DNA from: Escherichia coli
GTDB taxonomy: Bacteria; Pseudomonadota; Gammaproteobacteria; Enterobacterales; Enterobacteriaceae
Direction: 5' to 3' (one strand)
NCBI RefSeq assembly: GCF_036507355.1
Contig: NZ_AP027877.1
DNA: 64,000 bases
Position 1 is the first letter of the stretch. Each line of letters opens with the position of its first letter. The position numbers and the translations under genes are program-made. Below, in pieces: positions 11,124-19,280 of the stretch. The notes under the pieces were generated by a model, which had not been told where the DNA came from, searched no databases, and saw only the letters and a list, made by a program, of their open reading frames with translations.

Positions 11124-11873
11124 AATCATCATTCATGTATCAGGAAGAGTTAAGGGTACAAGGGGTACTCGATGGCGGTCTATATTTCATGACTAACGCC
11201 ATTTAAAGGAAGAAGTGCGGTGGGTGGTTTCGAATGAGGGCTGGTGTTTTGGTACGTGGCACGCCACTGCAATGTATTTATCCATCAGTACTCATTCAAA
11301 AGTACCTGGAAAAAATGCCCGCTATGCCAAGCGGGCAAATTGCTTACATGTGGAATTAAGTAATTAACGATAAAGCCAGAGTATTATCATTTATTATACC
11401 CATTCATTTAATCAGGTTAATTACTCAAATCACTGAACTATTCTCTGTTCGCTCACTGATGATGAGTGAGTACCACAACCAATGTATTAGAACAATGCCG
11501 TAGAGTAAGGATGAAATGTCTCTACCACACCTTAAACATCTACTACTGACTAGAACACCCGCCGCAGGTAGATGAGTTTTGTGAGCGTTACAGGAGCGTG
11601 GCTATGCTCATTAACCAACGCTATTGAGATATAAATTTCTAACACTTGAAAAACGATTTTCACTAATAAATTATAACGGGTGTTTTTTATCATACAGCGA
11701 AATAACTTTTTGTTTATTAAATTTAACATTCTTGTGCTAATTTAATTAAAAAGTCCATGCGTAGCATGTGAAGCAGTTAATGCCAGCAATTGTCTCAAAT
11801 GAGCGATTTTTTATAGTGACAAACAATAATAACATTAAAAATAGCCATGTAGACATTAACTGAGGAATAGACA

Positions 11874-13223
11874 ATGTTAATTAATAAAAGCAACGGATTT
11901 AACGCTAGCGCAGTTTTGGGTAGTGGAAATTATAATGAAAATAAATCTTCTAAACACATGGAGCTACTAGCTCATAGTATTGTAAAATTAATTTGTAAGG
12001 AAGCTGCATCAGAGACGTATCGCGGTGCTCTTGAAACTTTACAAAAAATGATGTCTGAATGTAAATATAAAGAAGGCAACGCCTTTGTCATTATGGGTGC
12101 TGGAGGGCAATTAAAACGTATTAAATATGATGTTGATGAAAATAAATTAAAAATATTCAACATATACTTTGATAATAATTACGAGGTAGTTACTGATGGT
12201 GAGCCTGACGTAGTATGTTTAAGCAAGCAGGTCTGGGAAAATCTTCTCATTAAATTAAAACCGGAGATTAAAGAAAATGTGTTTTCTGAAAATAACAAAT
12301 TATCGAGAGAAAATAATGTTGATCAGTATGTTCAATCCGCTAAAAGAAATGAACAGGCCCTTTTCGATAATATAATAAAAAGTGATTTTCATGTTGCTTC
12401 ACTTCAGCCAGGTAGAACACGTAGTGTTATTTCAGAAACGCCGCCAAATGACTGTATGGAATCACGTAATTCATATGAAAACCAAATAGATGAGATTTCA
12501 TCTTTGTCAGAGTCAAAGGAACACCCTATAGATATTCAAGAAAAAACAGATGCGTTTGTGAATGAGTTCAAGGGGATATTATTTGATCAAAATGGAAGGT
12601 CTTCAGAGTTTCTACTTAATTTTTATGAATGTTGCTATGTGTTTTTACCAAGAGCGCAGCCTCAGGATAAAATCGAAAGCTATAATTCAGCACTGCAAGC
12701 TTTTTCCATCTTTTGTTCATCTACGTTGACACATAATAATATAGGCTTTGATTTCAAATTATTTCCAGAAGTCAAGCTGTCTGGAGAACATCTTGAAACG
12801 GTATTCAAATACAAAAATGGCGATGATGTCCGGGAGATAGCCAAAATTAACATTTCTCTCCAAAAAGAAGAGGGTGGTTTATATAATTTACGTGGATTGG
12901 ATTTTAAGGGATGCTTCTTTTCTGGACAGAACTTCAGTAACTATGATATTCAATACGTGAACTGGGGAACGTCATTGTTTGATGTTGATACTCCGTGTAT
13001 TTTTAATACGCCTGCTAACAATGAGAGTTATGAAAAATCATTAAAACCTGTAAGCGAAAACGGTTTAAATGGAGTCTTATCTGATCGTATTAAAAAAATA
13101 AAAATGATCACGGGTGTGGCACCATTCGATGATATTTTATTTATGGATGATGACTTTGATGATAACTCCCCTGAGGATGGTCCCGTTGAGAATATTCCTG
13201 TTATGAATAGTCCTCTTGTATAA
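11874..13223 (+). CDS. Hypothetical protein, 449 aa, AT-rich orphan (ypjB/ypjC-like by position)
   Basis: Intact ORF with GAGGAA RBS 6 nt upstream of ATG; Ser/Asn-rich N-terminus without signal peptide; pentapeptide-repeat-like stretch NLRGLDFKGCFFSGQNFSNYDIQYVNWGTSLFDV; acidic C-terminus. Confidence 0.65.
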   Translation: MLINKSNGFNASAVLGSGNYNENKSSKHMELLAHSIVKLICKEAASETYRGALETLQKMMSECKYKEGNAFVIMGAGGQLKRIKYDVDENKLKIFNIYFDNNYEVVTDGEPDVVCLSKQVWENLLIKLKPEIKENVFSENNKLSRENNVDQYVQSAKRNEQALFDNIIKSDFHVASLQPGRTRSVISETPPNDCMESRNSYENQIDEISSLSESKEHPIDIQEKTDAFVNEFKGILFDQNGRSSEFLLNFYECCYVFLPRAQPQDKIESYNSALQAFSIFCSSTLTHNNIGFDFKLFPEVKLSGEHLETVFKYKNGDDVREIAKINISLQKEEGGLYNLRGLDFKGCFFSGQNFSNYDIQYVNWGTSLFDVDTPCIFNTPANNESYEKSLKPVSENGLNGVLSDRIKKIKMITGVAPFDDILFMDDDFDDNSPEDGPVENIPVMNSPLV

Positions 13224-13580
13224 AGTTCTAAAAGCAGTTTTCAATGATAAATAAATGGCTATTTTTACGAAGAGATAATAACGTAGATTGAAACAATATG
13301 TATTATTGATTGAGTAAATGGGATTATTCTTCACACTACATCCATTTTAGTGTCACTACCAAAGAAAAAGGGGCTACGTTTTCATGTAACCCCTTGATTT
13401 ATTTGGTGGGCTGGCAGTGACTGAATTGGTGCTGTAATTGGTTGAAATATTTCATCTAATGTCTGGTTCAACTTTCCTTAGCTGCCTGAAAGTTTTTTGA
13501 TCTCACCCAGTAATAACAGCGTTACGGTGCACCACGCCTGACTGAAGAACTGCGTGCTCAGGGTTACCACTTCAACGTAA

Positions 13581-13820
13581 AACCGTGGCAGGAGGTCCGG
13601 ACTGAAAAAACTGCTCAGGACATCATCGGCAGGGAACGCACTGCTAGTCTGTAAACTGAACCGACTGGGGCGCAGTATGTGGCATCTTGTCGTGCTGTTG
13701 GAGGAGCTGTGCGAACGTGGTATTAACTTTCGTGCTCTGGCCCAATCTATATTTGCCCAACAATGGGGGGACGAATGCTGTAAAAGTAAAACAATCTGCG
13801 ATCTCAAAGTTATTGTGTGA
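13581..13820 (+). pseudogene. Internal fragment of a resolvase/invertase-type serine recombinase (pinH-like remnant)
   Basis: Open frame ...[36 protein letters not shown]... matches the conserved serine-recombinase catalytic-domain core; N-terminal Ser region and C-terminal HTH absent. Confidence 0.5.
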
Positions 13821-14158
13821 TTTTTATGTGAGCAGAAGATATTCATCAGAAACGATTATGTAAATCATTTTATTTTGCCAACGGCCTCATTGTCGAAAGA
13901 AAAGAATACGCCCGTGTTTCCTGAATAGATTGACTTTTTTATCTAACCACACTTCAGCGCACTGCGTTTAAAAAATGCCTCATTCTTATGCGGAATATCA
14001 TCATTTCATCATGATGTCTTTGATGAGCGGTGAACACAATACACTTGCGCTGTCTCTTCAGGATGAATCCCCTGGTCTGGTGCCTGTGGGCTGATGTTGC
14101 AGCAAAGCTAAGGTCGCTTAAACGCTACTCAGTATTCACTTTTCAGAGGATGAAATTT

Positions 14159-15653
14159 ATGAACAGGACCAGTCCCTATTATTTTCGCCGCTCAGTACTT
14201 TCCTTATTGATATCTACCTTAATATATGCCCAGCCCGGGATGGCGGCCTTCACTACTAATGTTATTGGTGTGGTAAACGATGAGACTGTAGATGGCAACC
14301 AACGAGTAGATGAACGAGGTACAACAAATAACACTCATATTATCAACCATGGCCGGCAGGAGGTCTATGGTGGGATATCTAATAGTAGTATTATTGAAAC
14401 TGGTGGCGAGCAACTAGTATCAATCCATGCCGATATTAACGGGCAAGCTAATAATACAACCATTAATGGAGGCAGACAGTCAATTGAGTACGGAGGAATT
14501 TCTACTAGCACGATAATCGAAAGTGGCAATCAATATGTTCATAAAGGTGGTACCAGCAATGACACGACAATTAAGGGCGGTACTTCACGCATAGAGGGGG
14601 GGACTGCAAATGGAACAATCATTGATGGTGGTAGCCAACAAGTAACAACTCAGGGGCATGTTGACGGTACAACGATAAATAAGTCTGGCTCTCAGGACGT
14701 AGTACAAGGAAGTCTGGCAACGAACACAACCATAAATGGTGGTCGACAGTATGTTGAACAGAGCACAGTAGAAACAACAACCATTAAAAATGGCGGTGAG
14801 CAAAGAGTATATGAGAGCCGTGCGCTGGACACGACGATTGAAGGCGGAACTCAGTCTCTGAATAGTAAGTCAACGGCAAAAAATACACAGATCTATTCTG
14901 GTGGCACGCAAATTGTTGATAACACCAGCTCCTCGGATGTTATTGAAGTTTATTCCGGTGGCGTGCTTGATGTTAGTGGTGGTACGGCAACAAATGTTAC
15001 CCAGCACGATGGTGCAATTTTAAAAACTAACACTAACGGTACGACGGTGAGCGGTACGAATAGTGAAGGTGCATTCTCCATCCACAATCACGTGGCAGAC
15101 AATGTGTTGCTGGAAAACGGTGGTCATTTAGACATAAACGCATATGGTTCGGCAAACAAGACGATTATTAAAGATAAAGGAACAATGTCAGTTTTAACCA
15201 ATGCTAAAGCTGATGCGACCCGAATAGATAATGGCGGGGTTATGGATGTTGCAGGAAACGCGACAAATACCATAATTAATGGTGGCACACAGAATATTAA
15301 TAATTATGGCATAGCCACAGGCACCAATATCAACAGCGGAACGCAAAATATCAAAAGCGGCGGGAAAGCTGACACAACAATTATATCCTCCGGGAGCCGG
15401 CAGGTTGTTGAGAAAGATGGTACGGCAATTGGCAGCAATATTAGCGCCGGAGGCTCGCTGATTGTCTATACCGGCGGTATTGCACATGGGGTTAACCAGG
15501 AGACGGGCAGTGCTTTAGTTGCCAACACGGGTGCAGGGACTGATATCGAAGGATACAACAAGCTCTCTCACTTCACTATTACCGGAGGGGAGGCTAATTA
15601 TGTTGTGCTGGAAAACGCTGGCTCATTAACAGTCGTCACTGGTTCCCGGGCAG
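14159..15653 (+). pseudogene. 5' portion of an AIDA-I/Ag43-type autotransporter adhesin (ypjA-like); signal peptide plus repetitive passenger, truncated by IS1
   Basis: GAGGA RBS, start MNRTSPYYFRRSVLSLLISTLIYAQPGMA (signal peptide); ~19-aa repeats of the type NGGxQxVxxGGxAxxTTI; frame runs into IS1 at 15654 with no beta-barrel domain. Confidence 0.75.
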
Positions 15654-15708
15654 GGTGATGCTGCCAACTTACTGATTTAGTGTATGATGGTGTTTTTGAG
15701 GTGCTCCA

Positions 15709-15984
15709 GTGGCTTCTGTTTCTATCAGCTGTCCCTCCTGTTCAGCTACTGACGGGGTGGTGCGTAACGGCAAAAGCACCGCCGGACATCAGCGCTATCT
15801 CTGCTCTCACTGCCGTAAAACATGGCAACTGCAGTTCACTTACACCGCTTCTCAACCCGGTACGCACCAGAAAATCATTGATATGGCCATGAATGGCGTT
15901 GGATGCCGGGCAACAGCCCGCATTATGGGCGTTGGCCTCAACACGATTTTACGTCACTTAAAAAACTCAGGCCGCAGTCGGTAA
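15709..15984 (+). CDS. insA: IS1 InsA
   Basis: Protein identical to the InsA at 8363-8638. Confidence 0.95.
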
Positions 15985-16406
15985 CCTCGCGCATACAGCC
16001 GGGCAGTGACGTCATCGTCTGCGCGGAAATGGACGAACAGTGGGGCTATGTCGGGGCTAAATCGCGCCAGCGCTGGCTGTTTTACGCGTATGACAGGCTC
16101 CGGAAGACGGTTGTTGCGCACGTATTCGGTGAACGCACGATGGCGACGCTGGGGCGTCTTATGAGCCTGCTGTCACCCTTTGACGTGGTGATATGGATGA
16201 CGGATGGCTGGCCGCTGTATGAATCCCGCCTGAAGGGAAAGCTGCACGTAATCAGCAAGCGATATACGCAGCGAATTGAGCGGCATAACCTGAATCTGAG
16301 GCAGCACCTGGCACGGCTGGGACGGAAGTCGCTGTCGTTCTCAAAATCGGTGGAGCTGCATGACAAAGTCATCGGGCATTATCTGAACATAAAACACTAT
16401 CAATAA
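15903..16406 (+). CDS. insB: IS1 InsB reading frame
   Basis: Protein identical to the InsB at 8557-9060. Confidence 0.93.
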
Positions 16407-16421
16407 GTTGGAGTCATTACC

Positions 16422-17239
16422 GAGGTTTTGTTATATATGTTGTTTCCAATATATTTTTCATTTGTCAAAATTTGATGTATTTTTGCACGAGTCCATAATG
16501 TTCCATTTTCTGCAGGTATGTTCTGTTCATTTAATCTCTCAGCAATAATGAATTCTGGGACGTTATTATCTATAAAGAGATCATATATTCTATTTACAAT
16601 TTTTATTTCATTTTTTGGTCCCGGAATTAATATTACCCTATCTGTTTGAATACTCTTTCTTTTGCGGAAACTCAATATTTCTTTAGCTATGCCATTTTCG
16701 TCTACTAAAAGACGTCTCAGCCCATAACCAGCCATACCGCCTTGATGATAACCAAGCTTTATTAAATTTACTTGCCCTATAAATACCTTTTCAGATAGAT
16801 TCCTGCTGTGATATGCAGCACTAGATCTTTTTATATTCAGTATAACAGAGGACTCTAAAGGGAAATCTTTAGTGGGTATAGGTTCGGAACAATATATAAG
16901 ATCTACACCATTTCTCTCAAATAGAAAGGAATAATATGCCGCTTCATCACTATTTTGAAAACGACCAAAACGGCTCACATCATAAAATAATACAGCCTGT
17001 ATATCTATTTTCTTTTGTTCTACATCGCTAAGTAACTGCTGCAAAGAATGCCTGCCTACGATACTGACTCCGCTCTTACCTGCATCATCGTAGGTATAAG
17101 CGATTTCCATATTGTTCTTTTCAGCATAATCTTTGATATATTCGGACTGATTATGTAAAGAATATTGCTGATGGTCGGTAGACATCCTCAAGTACTGCGC
17201 GACCCTAACTCTATGATTTTTTTCATTTTCGCTAGCCAT
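16422..17239 (-). pseudogene. Large serine recombinase, N-terminal ~270 aa; 3' end removed at the IS1 junction
   Basis: MASENEKNHRVRVAQYLRMSTDHQQYSLHNQSEYIKDYAEKNNMEIAYTYDDAGKSG... (catalytic Ser motif), ...LWTRAKIHQILTNEKYIGNNIYNK recombinase domain; ORF continues a few codons into IS1; AT-rich. Confidence 0.7.
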
Positions 17240-17521: not shown

Positions 17522-18751
17522 TTATGCGGCAATAACTTTGCATTTTTGAGACGAAACATAGTCACTCCACCATTGCATGAGAACCACCCGTTCAGTGAGA
17601 TACTCTGCACGATTGTAGGCTGCAATTATTTCATCTTTCTTCGAGTGGGCAAGGGCGGCTTCTAAGACATCAGTCCTAAACTTGCCAGACTCCTCAGCAG
17701 CCGTTCTAGCAATGGATCGCATACCGTGAGCTACAAGCTCACCTCCGAAACCCATACGGATTATGGCCGCATTAGCTGTTTGTTCATGCATGTGATTGAG
17801 TGGAGCTTTGATACTGGGGAACACCCACTCTCTATGCCCGCTGATGACTTTCATTAAATCCAAAACTCGCAAAGCTTCTTTGCTCAGTGGAACTTTGTGA
17901 GGCTTCTTCATTTTCATAAACTCCGCCGGGATGTTCCACATGCCAGTTTCAATATCAATATCTGACCATCTTGTGCGAACAGCTTCACCTGGGCGAACCC
18001 ATGTGAGAAGTTGCCACTCAATCAGTAGCCTTGTTTCCAAACGGATAGAAGCATTGTTTAGAGCAACCAAGAAGCGAGGGAGTTCGGAAGGGGGTAATGC
18101 TGGCATATTCTGTTTTTTTGGCTTGCTGAACCGTTGCCCCAGGTTGTCTGCCGGGTTGAATTCTATGAGTTCTTCTGTTGCTGCATAGCGGAAAATTTCA
18201 TTCAGGCGGGATATGATGCGGCGAAGTGTTTCAAGGACACCTCGTTTTTCTATGGGTTCTAAATGCTGTTTAAGCATTTTAGGGCGAATCTCCTTAATTG
18301 GGGTATCACCCAATGTGGAAAAGATATTTCTCTCTAGGCTTCGCCAGATGTCGTTAGCATGATCTTGGGAGATGCCTGACGTTTTGACTTTCTCATCAAG
18401 CCACTTCTTGGCTACTGCTTGAAATGTATGTTCCGTGGCATCTTTCAGTGCATTGGCTTTTTGGTTGTTATGAACTTGGGGGTCTATACCATTTGTAAGC
18501 AACGACAAGTATTCATCACGTAAAGCTCGTGCCTTCGCAAGTGTAAGGTGAGGATAGGTTCCTAAGCTCACCTTAGTTCGCTTTTTGGTCACAGGCACTG
18601 CATATCTGAAATACCAATTTTTCTTCCCTCCCTTCGCCAGGGGAGCGATTCGCAACAGCAAACCATCGCCGTCAAAAAGGTTAACCTCTTTTTCGGCAGG
18701 TTTGGTGCTTTTGATTTCAGTGTCAGTGAGCTTCTTAGCGATTTTGGCCAT
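17522..18751 (-). CDS. P4-type tyrosine integrase (phage/island integrase), ~409 aa
   Basis: ORF 17522-18832; start placed at ATG 18749-18751 (MAKIAKKLTDTEIKSTKP...) with GAGGG RBS; N-terminal arm-binding-like region and C-terminal catalytic region (...HGMRSIARTAAEESG...); adjacent to ssrA 3' end. Confidence 0.85.
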   Translation of the reverse strand: MAKIAKKLTDTEIKSTKPAEKEVNLFDGDGLLLRIAPLAKGGKKNWYFRYAVPVTKKRTKVSLGTYPHLTLAKARALRDEYLSLLTNGIDPQVHNNQKANALKDATEHTFQAVAKKWLDEKVKTSGISQDHANDIWRSLERNIFSTLGDTPIKEIRPKMLKQHLEPIEKRGVLETLRRIISRLNEIFRYAATEELIEFNPADNLGQRFSKPKKQNMPALPPSELPRFLVALNNASIRLETRLLIEWQLLTWVRPGEAVRTRWSDIDIETGMWNIPAEFMKMKKPHKVPLSKEALRVLDLMKVISGHREWVFPSIKAPLNHMHEQTANAAIIRMGFGGELVAHGMRSIARTAAEESGKFRTDVLEAALAHSKKDEIIAAYNRAEYLTERVVLMQWWSDYVSSQKCKVIAA

Positions 18752-18850
18752 GTTTGGGACCCTCGATTTTAGGACCCATCTTCGTGGGTCCCATTCAGGG
18801 TGCCATAACTCGTAGTTCTCAGCAATTCTCACTAGACTACAATAGACGTA

Positions 18851-18917: not shown

Positions 18918-19280
18918 TGGTGGAGCTGGCGGGAGTTGAACCCGCGTCCGAAATTCCTACATCCTCGGTACTACATGCTTAGTCAGTCTTTACATTCGCT
19001 TGCCAGCTGCGGACGGACACGCCACTAACAAACTAGCCTGATTAAGTTTTAACGCTTCAACCCCAGGCAGGGCTTCCACGCGATCTCTTTTGGGTTTGAC
19101 CTCTCTTGATCCCCGTCCTAAGAGCGGAGGCTAGGGAGAGAGGGCTCTAAGCAGGTTATTAAGCTGCTAAAGCGTAGTTTTCGTCGTTTGCGACTATTTT
19201 TTGCGGCTTTTTACGAGGCCAACCGCCCCTCGGCATGCACCTTGGGTTTCGCAAATCCCGTCGAATCCAGAATCAGCCCC
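18918..19280 (-). ncRNA. ssrA: tmRNA (SsrA), 363 nt
   Basis: Reverse complement begins GGGGCTGATTCTGGATTCGACGGGATTTGCG and ends ...GTTCAACTCCCGCCAGCTCCACCA; tag-peptide reading frame region present. Confidence 0.97.

Follow-up and report, generated by a model that had tools for sequence, protein, structure and literature searches.

The 64,000-nucleotide stretch of Escherichia coli DNA analysed here (the window; NCBI RefSeq assembly GCF_036507355.1, contig NZ_AP027877.1) carries two copies of IS1, and the second of them raises the question of how an element without a target-site duplication came to lie between the 5' parts of two truncated genes. A preliminary description of the locus attributed this arrangement to an IS1-mediated adjacent deletion or to recombination between IS1 copies. 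To answer the question, the element, its two flanks, the missing interval and the same locus in other E. coli genomes are considered in turn.

The element and the two genes at its ends

IS1 copy 2 (positions 15654–16421, + strand) is a complete element of 768 bp. IRL (15654–15676, + strand) and IRR (16399–16421, − strand) show 0 mismatches to the canonical imperfect 23-bp terminal inverted repeats, for which we used GGTGATGCTGCCAACTTACTGAT / GGTAATGACTCCAACTTATTGAT, sequences that we take to be the IS1 ends; 100 shuffles gave 0 matches to these ends. In agreement with this, an E. coli AF43 copy that is 100% identical bears the RefSeq label "IS1A family", and IS1 copies in relatives bear the label "programmed frameshift". 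Both insA (15709–15984) and insB (15903–16406) are open reading frames, and the A6C −1 frameshift site (AAAAAAC) lies at 15960–15966. Length, terminal repeats and the insA/insB' organisation with the A6C site are all those of the IS1 family, and with its ends intact and both frames open the element is active-looking. The 9-mers that flank it, CCCGGGCAG (15645–15653) and GAGGTTTTG (16422–16430), are mismatched, as the preliminary description had stated. The junction regions (25 flanking plus 8 IS bases per side) share no k-mer of 5 or more bases, so that shifting the IS1 ends rescues no duplication. Copy 2 is therefore an IS1 element without the 8–9-bp duplication that defines a simple IS1 insertion, as is expected if a deletion came after the insertion.

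IS1 copy 1 (8308–9075, + strand; ends at 8308–8330 and 9053–9075) serves as an internal control. It is a simple insertion in a ygaQ-like alpha-amylase gene and is flanked on both sides by an 8/9-bp duplication, ATATTTTG(G) (8300–8307 and 9076–9083). Copies 1 and 2 are 100% identical in sequence and lie in direct orientation 6.6 kb apart. An exchange of flanks between them is ruled out because the flanks of copy 1 match each other. The copy 1 junction, when used as a lineage marker, found no match.

The gene to the left of copy 2 is the 5' remnant of ypjA/ehaD (14159–15653, + strand, 499 codons), identified by a profile match and by RefSeq labels in relatives as an autotransporter of the AIDA-I/Ag43 type with passenger repeats (TIGR04415). 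The remnant corresponds to nucleotides 1–1774 of the intact gene, which is 4575 nt long, less 285 bp lost from within, and its stop codon TGA (15656–15658) comes from the IS1 end; the claim that IS1 cuts the autotransporter is borne out by intact homologues, which run beyond this point. The β-barrel (TIGR01414), which spans residues 1081–1524 of intact YpjA, is deleted in the window, indicating that this copy is a pseudogene of the type Va autotransporter YpjA/EhaD. Two features of this flank had been overlooked. One is an in-frame deletion of 285 bp (95 codons), whose scar at 15605–15615 (+ strand) lies between two copies of GTGCTGGAAAA and which ends 38 bp to the left of IS1. The 38 bp from the scar to IS1 are exactly ypjA nucleotides 1737–1774 (38/38 bases at an offset of +285), and the 285-bp offset recurs against six intact or partial ypjA alleles. 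Among the best matches none is contiguous across the scar, and the top-ranked genomes all retain the 285 bp. The other is that ypjA is a chromosomal gene adjoining the distal attachment (att) site of the neighbouring genomic island and is not part of the island cargo. Strains 100416 and PapM-32-1, which match the left flank most closely, have an intact ypjA but other occupants at ssrA, and so shed no light on the sequence of steps.

To the right of copy 2, a large serine recombinase gene survives only in its 5' part (16422–17239, − strand), with 818 of 1557 nt and 272 codons left of the 518 residues of the intact homologue, in good accord with the earlier estimate of a cut after about 270 residues. 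The reading frame enters IS1 for 6 codons and stops at 16400. In the intact homologue, the Resolvase domain (PF00239) covers residues 14–152 (1.4e-21) and the Recombinase domain (PF07508) residues 210–312 (1.1e-21), and the cut falls inside the latter. The catalytic motif YLRMSTDHQ is present in the window copy, and the C-terminal region is missing from it. A PF13408 match for a C-terminal zinc ribbon and coiled coil was absent from the intact homologue at E ≤ 10, and this region may be divergent. Among NCBIfam families CcrB comes closest, although far under its cut-off. The G+C content of the recombinase side is 32–38%. Since the intact homologues of both genes extend far beyond the junctions, neither gene ends naturally at IS1, which disposes of the objection that natural gene ends might account for the arrangement. 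On the evidence of their sequences, both genes are shown to be dead in the window.

The ssrA island and the extent of the loss

The recombinase remnant belongs to a genomic island inserted at ssrA. Next to it lies an intact P4-type tyrosine integrase gene (PRK09692; 17522–18832, − strand), labelled WP_001062342.1, whose DNA is 100% identical to that of strains E3, TKEC21-59 and E308. It is followed by ssrA, the tmRNA gene (18918–19280, − strand), the 3' end of which is the proximal att site of the island. The att repeat, located by comparison with an empty site, is 16 bp long. A long att repeat was rejected, as an exact comparison with a 12-bp minimum found no repeat common to the ypjA-distal end and ssrA in the segments first compared. 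The island occurs in 654 of 5,426 complete E. coli genomes; CP4-57 in K-12 is another E. coli genomic island integrated at ssrA. In strains MRE162 and ZYB62, the island is mobilizable and carries the integrase, the serine recombinase and two ParB genes. The window has the same layout, with the ssrA 3' end, the P4-type integrase, the island and ypjA past the distal end. Unlike those islands, it has kept just the integrase and the 272 recombinase codons. The window lacks the distal copy of the 16-bp att repeat and all of the cargo, and so the island is a fixed remnant rather than a mobile element; with a single att site, it can no longer excise.

The preliminary description had suggested that aligning both flanks to intact ypjA and an intact ssrA island would size the missing interval. 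Strain MRE162, in which ypjA is intact and the ssrA island measures 20.45 kb, was used as the intact reference. Both flanks map on MRE162 collinearly and in the same orientation, the remainder of the window is collinear with it as well, and the window lacks 20,913 bp that lie there between ypjA nucleotide 1774 and recombinase nucleotide 818. The missing interval includes 2.8 kb of the 3' part of ypjA with the β-barrel, the distal att repeat with a spacer, the island cargo (a relaxase gene, ankyrin genes, defence-type genes and the two ParB genes) and the 3' half of the recombinase gene. These are precisely the parts that had been proposed to be lost, so that the deletion itself, by whichever of the two suggested routes, is well founded in the mapping, and no alternative duplication was found. 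As a result, the 5' third of ypjA is fused to the 5' half of the recombinase gene with IS1 between them. The figure of 20,913 bp presumes an MRE162-like island; the ZYB62 island has an integrase 100% identical to that of the window but other cargo (type I R-M), and so the true loss may be nearer 24 kb.

IS1 at the same locus in other E. coli

IS1 lies against the same recombinase/integrase remnant in at least 35 genomes, of about 650 with the island. It is in + orientation in 21 genomes and in − orientation in 14, and the variants are 90–100% identical to that of the window. The first ten loci had all been +, because the queries had joined same-strand pieces only; reversed IS1 was then searched. 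The numbers in the two orientations and the range of identity rule out the idea of one ancestral resident IS1 that eroded both ways in all strains. A single ancestral IS1 is kept only for the near-clonal pairs described below. Nineteen IS1 copies from 18 sequenced strains give 13 different deletion-type junction pairs. At the sampled loci, all six gap-free copies (copy 1 of the window and five others) have an 8–9-bp duplication, whereas none of the 13 copies with a gap of 5–29 kb has one, indicating that loss of the duplication tracks deletion. IS1 has thus eroded the ssrA/ypjA locus independently many times in E. coli, a point that had been overlooked earlier.

Two near-clonal pairs indicate that adjacent deletion operates at this locus. 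Strains AH21 and MDK6L1 are 99.98% identical over about 15 kb and have IS1 and the left junction in common, and AH21 has lost a further 2,482 bp relative to MDK6L1, starting exactly from the right end of IS1. Strains E3 and E308 have the same IS1 (1 mismatch) and flanks 99.9% identical, with one-sided losses on opposite sides of IS1. The IS1 variants of these pairs are 98.3–98.4% identical to that of the window, and the pairs are analogies for the window, not its ancestors.

Other strains have simple insertions in the two genes. AF43, FORC_081 and NCTC9080 carry IS1 in ypjA in + orientation with 9-bp duplications, at nucleotides 193–201, 1925–1933 and 2845–2853, and GENOMIC22-004 carries it in the recombinase gene, also in + orientation, at nucleotides 435–443 with a 9-bp duplication. 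FORC_081 was rejected as an IS1 deletion junction, being really such a simple insertion with a separate IS-less deletion 298 bp further on. Strains 600 and EC556 have a ygaQ'–IS1–rec' structure. At one and the same base, EC556 and PSJ-23 carry IS1 variants that differ from each other and point in opposite directions, and the glaH–ygaQ spacer has four left junctions within 85 bp. IS1 prefers AT-rich DNA. It is conceivable, although doubtful, that the AT-rich recombinase/ParB end is a true IS1 hot spot, where repeated arrival and two-sided adjacent deletion would regularly strip and immobilise the island, often together with ypjA, ypjCB, ileY and ygaQ. Such a pattern could reflect target-site preference combined with selection against the cargo rather than neutral decay.

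The junctions of the window itself belong to none of these strains. Probes of 300 bp over the junctions were run against the 5,426 complete E. coli genomes, and exact 38–39-mers over them against GTDB representative genomes and JGI metagenomes; the reciprocals of the two junctions are IRR followed by CCCGGGCAG and TTGATACG, and GAGGTTTTG followed by IRL. Neither window junction is present in these collections, which are without Shigella genomes, and at neither position does any strain in them carry an IS1 flanked by a duplication of its own. An exact-sequence lookup of the ypjA'–IS1 and rec'–IS1 fusion reading frames returned no record. The source lineage appears to be unsampled in those collections.

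Origin of the deletion and its meaning

The deletion of about 21 kb anchored at IS1 copy 2 probably, although by no means securely, arose by adjacent deletion. By this mechanism, IS1 would first have landed somewhere in the interval from ypjA to the recombinase gene, after which one or two rounds of intramolecular replicative transposition would have directed one of its ends at DNA close by. Such an adjacent deletion would each time remove the DNA from the IS end to the new target, with the IS kept and no duplication left. The window has the features of IS1-promoted adjacent deletions: the deletion starts exactly at the IS end, a complete IS1 is kept, the 9-bp duplication is missing and the flanks are collinear, and near-clonal strains display nested stepwise growth at the same locus. 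Further support comes from the intact ends and open insA and insB of copy 2, and from the AT-rich recombinase side, given the preference of IS1 for such DNA. The classical gal-region deletions were reportedly promoted by IS1 (Reif and Saedler, 1975), and Turlan and Chandler are said to have described intramolecular rearrangements of IS1 in 1995. Unlike the classical IS1 deletions, that of the window is found in a natural isolate without an available ancestor, and its end points are common to no other sequenced strain.

Homologous recombination that deletes the DNA between direct IS copies is documented for evolution lines of E. coli and for Shigella genomes rich in IS elements, and it is a possible, if less probable, origin here. 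In that case, RecA would have recombined direct IS1 copies at ypjA nucleotide 1774 and recombinase nucleotide 818, excising a circle of about 21 kb and leaving a hybrid IS1. The product in the window, one IS1 between flanks from two sites and no duplication, is the same as that of adjacent deletion, and, the IS1 copies being identical, a hybrid would be unrecognisable as such and gives no positive evidence for recombination. The simple insertions in ypjA and in the recombinase gene of other strains are of the precursor type and in the right orientation, and many genomes that carry IS1 at the locus have at least about 40 IS1-matching places each, an ample substrate. Moreover, recombination between the two identical direct copies of the window would give the ygaQ'–IS1–rec' structure of strains 600 and EC556. 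Against this stands the need for two insertions and a crossover, where adjacent deletion needs one insertion and one or two transposase events. The two-IS1 precursor was not found for the window sites, IS1 being present at either required site in 0 of 5,426 genomes, and the one-sided losses in the near-clonal pairs would demand an extra IS1 insertion each time. Published work on IS-associated rearrangements also mentions recombinational loss of the DNA between direct IS copies, finds that missing duplications commonly result from adjacent deletions or inter-IS recombination, and reports that IS-adjacent deletions often enlarge stepwise (PMC11708052). Adjacent deletion is thus somewhat favoured over recombination between IS1 copies.

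It is improbable that IS1 arrived and deleted the interval in one step, by joining its ends to two distant targets on looped DNA or sister chromosomes. Neither window junction is seen as a simple insertion, which suits such a route, and IS arrivals with large rearrangements and without duplications are on record, the route having been proposed for IS5 and IS481 (PMC11708052). However, those cases belong to other IS families, all 14 IS-plus-deletion events in long-term evolution lines were an insertion followed by an adjacent deletion (PMC11708052), and the window sequence has no feature that distinguishes a single step. An assembly artefact, in which two IS1 copies flanking an intact interval were collapsed into one, is more improbable still. 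A multicopy element of 768 bp is a classic cause of misjoins, and the junctions and fusion reading frames are on record in no collection searched, but two IS1 copies are present within 64 kb of otherwise collinear DNA, suggesting that the data resolved the repeat. Structures of exactly this type occur in many E. coli genomes that were finished independently, and the loss of 285 bp from ypjA close by is in keeping with a gene that is truly dead. A simple insertion with a decayed duplication, or natural gene ends, found no support and is ruled out, as the flanks are 20.9 kb apart in MRE162 and share no 5-mer, and the intact ypjA of 4575 nt and recombinase gene of 1557 nt run past the junctions.

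At the level of the strain, the YpjA/EhaD adhesin has been inactivated, and the ssrA island has been stripped of its cargo and can no longer excise. Lying as it now does between two identical direct IS1 copies, the ileY–ypjCB–ypjA' segment is exposed to a next deletion. The window case is a routine IS1-associated deletion, of an already known kind of IS-driven genome erosion; it is a further instance of reductive evolution driven by IS elements and opens no new question. The comparative series at the locus, with simple insertions, one-sided nested deletions and both orientations of IS1, provides a tidy natural illustration of this reductive process.

IS1 copy 2 and the genes on either side of it

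Canonical 23-bp IS1 ends occur in the window as two pairs without mismatches, and never in shuffled sequence. These terminal-repeat matches delimit two plus-strand elements, copy 1 (8308-9075) and copy 2 (15654-16421), which are both 768 bp long and identical in sequence. Copy 2 has open insA (15709-15984, plus strand) and insB (15903-16406, plus strand) frames with an A6C frameshift motif at 15960-15966 (plus strand); it is a full member of IS1, and the only hallmark that fails is that of a simple insertion. Its flanking 9-mers are CCCGGGCAG on the left and GAGGTTTTG on the right, exactly as in the preliminary description, and no 5-mer in the window is common to both junction regions, so that shifting the IS1 ends yields no target duplication. 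Copy 1, bounded on both sides by ATATTTTG(G) within a ygaQ-like alpha-amylase gene, is an ordinary simple insertion and an internal control for copy 2.

The left open reading frame encodes an AIDA-I/Ag43-type autotransporter with strand-loop-strand repeats, and its homologues are named ypjA, "adhesin-like autotransporter YpjA/EhaD", in RefSeq. Intact ypjA alleles have 4575 nt, with the beta-barrel at residues 1081-1524. The remnant, ypjA', starts at 14159 and is broken at the equivalent of nt 1774, leaving 499 passenger codons and a stop codon supplied by copy 2. The right open reading frame, on the minus strand, bears the serine-recombinase motif YLRMSTDHQ, and its intact homologue of 518 aa contains Pfam Resolvase (aa 14-152) and Recombinase (aa 210-312) domains. 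The remnant, rec' (minus strand), keeps 818 nt (272 codons), breaks inside the Recombinase domain and continues in frame six codons into IS1. The lengths of the intact genes exclude natural gene ends at copy 2, and the unmatched 9-mers and the two breaks confirm the earlier observation of an element without target duplication between two truncated genes. An intact P4-type tyrosine integrase gene (17522-18832) and, beyond it, ssrA (18918-19280) are also present.

The final 38 bp left of copy 2 do not continue the ypjA sequence before them but match ypjA 285 bp onward, at 38 of 38 bases. The switch point is the 11-bp repeat GTGCTGGAAAA at 15605-15615, and the 285-bp (95-codon) deletion is in-frame, lies between two GTGCTGGAAAA repeats and ends 38 bp before IS1 (15605-15653). 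The offset recurs against all alleles compared, and of 2,806 genomes those with the best matches lack the deletion, every one of them retaining the 285 bp. An origin in IS1 end chemistry is rejected, and the lesion is read as slippage between passenger repeats in an already dead gene or as a private allele.

Extent of the loss and relatives of the window

In E. coli MRE162, the undisturbed order is ileY, ypjCB, a pinH fragment, ypjA, a 20.45-kb island and ssrA. The island contains DUF6387 and HTH genes, a relaxase gene, ankyrin genes, NACHT and RelA/SpoT genes, two ParB genes, the recombinase and the integrase. In HS30-1 the site is unoccupied, ypjA abutting ssrA. Set against this empty site, the island proves to be bounded by a 16-bp direct repeat, one copy at each end, and ypjA is therefore chromosomal DNA adjoining the island and not island cargo. 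The left flank of copy 2 ends at position 12101 of the MRE162 locus and the right flank begins at 33015 in the same orientation, the remainder of the window being collinear with MRE162 from 3056 to 37237. Relative to MRE162, 20,913 bp are absent: 17.9 kb of the island, 2.8 kb of ypjA and, between them, the spacer, which carries the distal att repeat. The proposed reading as an IS1-associated deletion is thus upheld, and a decayed duplication is excluded by the lack of a common 5-mer and by the distance between the flanks on MRE162. The window integrase is 100% identical to that of a second island variant, most complete in ZYB62, in which a type I restriction-modification system replaces the NACHT genes. 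The true loss could therefore be nearer 24 kb.

The intact ssrA island (MRE162 locus, 15075-35524; ZYB62 locus, about 19700-43466) is a mobilizable element with a conserved core of integrase, serine recombinase, two ParB genes and a relaxase. Its cargo is variable and defence-like, with NACHT and RelA/SpoT genes in MRE162 and type I restriction-modification, ankyrin and nearby SIR2 genes in ZYB62. In ZYB62, where the window's island variant is near-intact, an internally deleted plus-strand IS1 of about 735 bp without duplication lies between hsdR and an ankyrin gene (30298-31032 of that locus) and may exemplify an IS1 resident in the island.

Among 5,426 complete E. coli genomes, none matched the copy 2 junction probes contiguously, the exact junction strings had no match in representative-genome or metagenome collections, and neither fusion protein had a record. 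The copy 1 junction is likewise unique to the window. The core side, from ssrA to recN, shows about 99.2% identity with E. coli, and the ileY-ypjCB side is 95-96.5% identical to most strains and 99.1% to Gambian isolate 100416, which has an intact ypjA. The window thus appears to represent a lineage (E. coli or Shigella) outside the collections searched. By segment, the gab/ygaQ/ileY/ypjCB/ypjA side (3056-15615) shows 95-96.5% identity to MRE162 and most E. coli and 99.1% to 100416, and the ssrA-to-pheA side (16422-37237) shows 98.5-99.3%; this step points to mosaic recombination with a boundary at the ssrA hot spot. The window ypjCB (11874-13223) is an intact 449-codon frame with a full-length NF050179 match; for many strains RefSeq annotates this gene as a pseudogene interrupted by a stop codon. 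The tRNA at 11048-11123 is Met(CAT) according to ARAGORN and tRNA-Ile (ileY type) in the annotation of relatives.

IS1 at this locus across E. coli

The island module of recombinase and ParB genes is found in 654 of 5,426 genomes, and many strains have a truncated recombinase or ParB gene with IS1 directly adjoining it. A forward query recovered 21 genomes and a reversed-IS1 query 14, and the copies are 90 to 100% identical to that of the window. A single ancient resident IS1, to which the first ten examples, all on the plus strand, had pointed, is rejected, since that uniformity reflected same-strand query bias. Both orientations and the spread of identity show that IS1 arrived many times independently. 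When 19 copies were mapped onto MRE162 coordinates, an 8-9-bp duplication was found in all six copies without a gap (window copy 1, two in AF43, and those of FORC_081, NCTC9080 and GENOMIC22-004, the last a simple insertion within the recombinase gene) and in none of the 13 with a 5-29-kb gap.

In FORC_081 (4918-5220 of its locus), a distinct deletion lies 298 bp right of the simple IS1 insertion in ypjA; it spans about 3 kb and fuses ypjA to the island HTH gene with no IS at the junction. In the loci of EC556 (7383-8150) and PSJ-23 (9001-9768), IS1 meets the recombinase gene at one identical base (nt 1029, flank ATCAATGAT). The two elements have opposite orientations and belong to distinct variants, with 93.4% and 99.7% identity to the window IS1; the shared site reflects either a hot spot for insertion or a replacement that is unexplained. 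Four strains (Z226-5, HS30-1, AR_0085 and PSJ-23) have independent IS1 deletion junctions in an 85-bp stretch of the glaH-ygaQ intergenic spacer (MRE162 locus, 4227-4311), which suggests that this spacer is a preferred IS1 target.

Route of the deletion

The deletion at copy 2 is shown by sequence comparison; as to its route, we infer that transposase-driven adjacent deletion is favoured, because of two near-clonal pairs at the same locus and of published evolution lines. AH21 and MDK6L1 are 99.98% identical over about 15 kb and have a common IS1 and left junction, and AH21 lacks a further 2,482 bp that start precisely where IS1 ends on the right. E3 and E308 have a common IS1 with losses on its opposite sides. 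Such IS-anchored one-sided loss is how transposase-driven adjacent deletion behaves and matches the stepwise growth of IS-adjacent deletions in evolution lines (PMC11708052). A single IS1 would have inserted within the ypjA-to-recombinase interval, and one or two intramolecular transposition events from it would have followed. The less likely alternative is that an IS1 in ypjA and a second one in the recombinase gene recombined through RecA; the product would be identical, both precursor types are known from other strains and are suitably oriented, and the window already holds two identical direct copies poised for such an event. One-step insertion with deletion and assembly collapse are minor possibilities.

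Copies 1 and 2 (8308-9075 and 15654-16421) bracket 6.6 kb in direct orientation, comprising the ygaQ 5' part, ileY, ypjCB, the pinH fragment and ypjA'; if the two copies recombined, the product would be ygaQ'-IS1-rec', a structure present in strains 600 and EC556.

The copy 2 locus is a textbook IS1-associated deletion, unsurprising to a specialist, and its significance lies in the failure of the simple-insertion hallmark. To the preliminary description the analysis adds how large the loss is and what it comprises, the missing island att site, the 285-bp lesion and the recurrent erosion of the locus. The common base in EC556 and PSJ-23 and the four left junctions in the glaH-ygaQ spacer hint at a mildly novel reading, that the recombinase end of the ssrA island may be a true IS1 hot spot.
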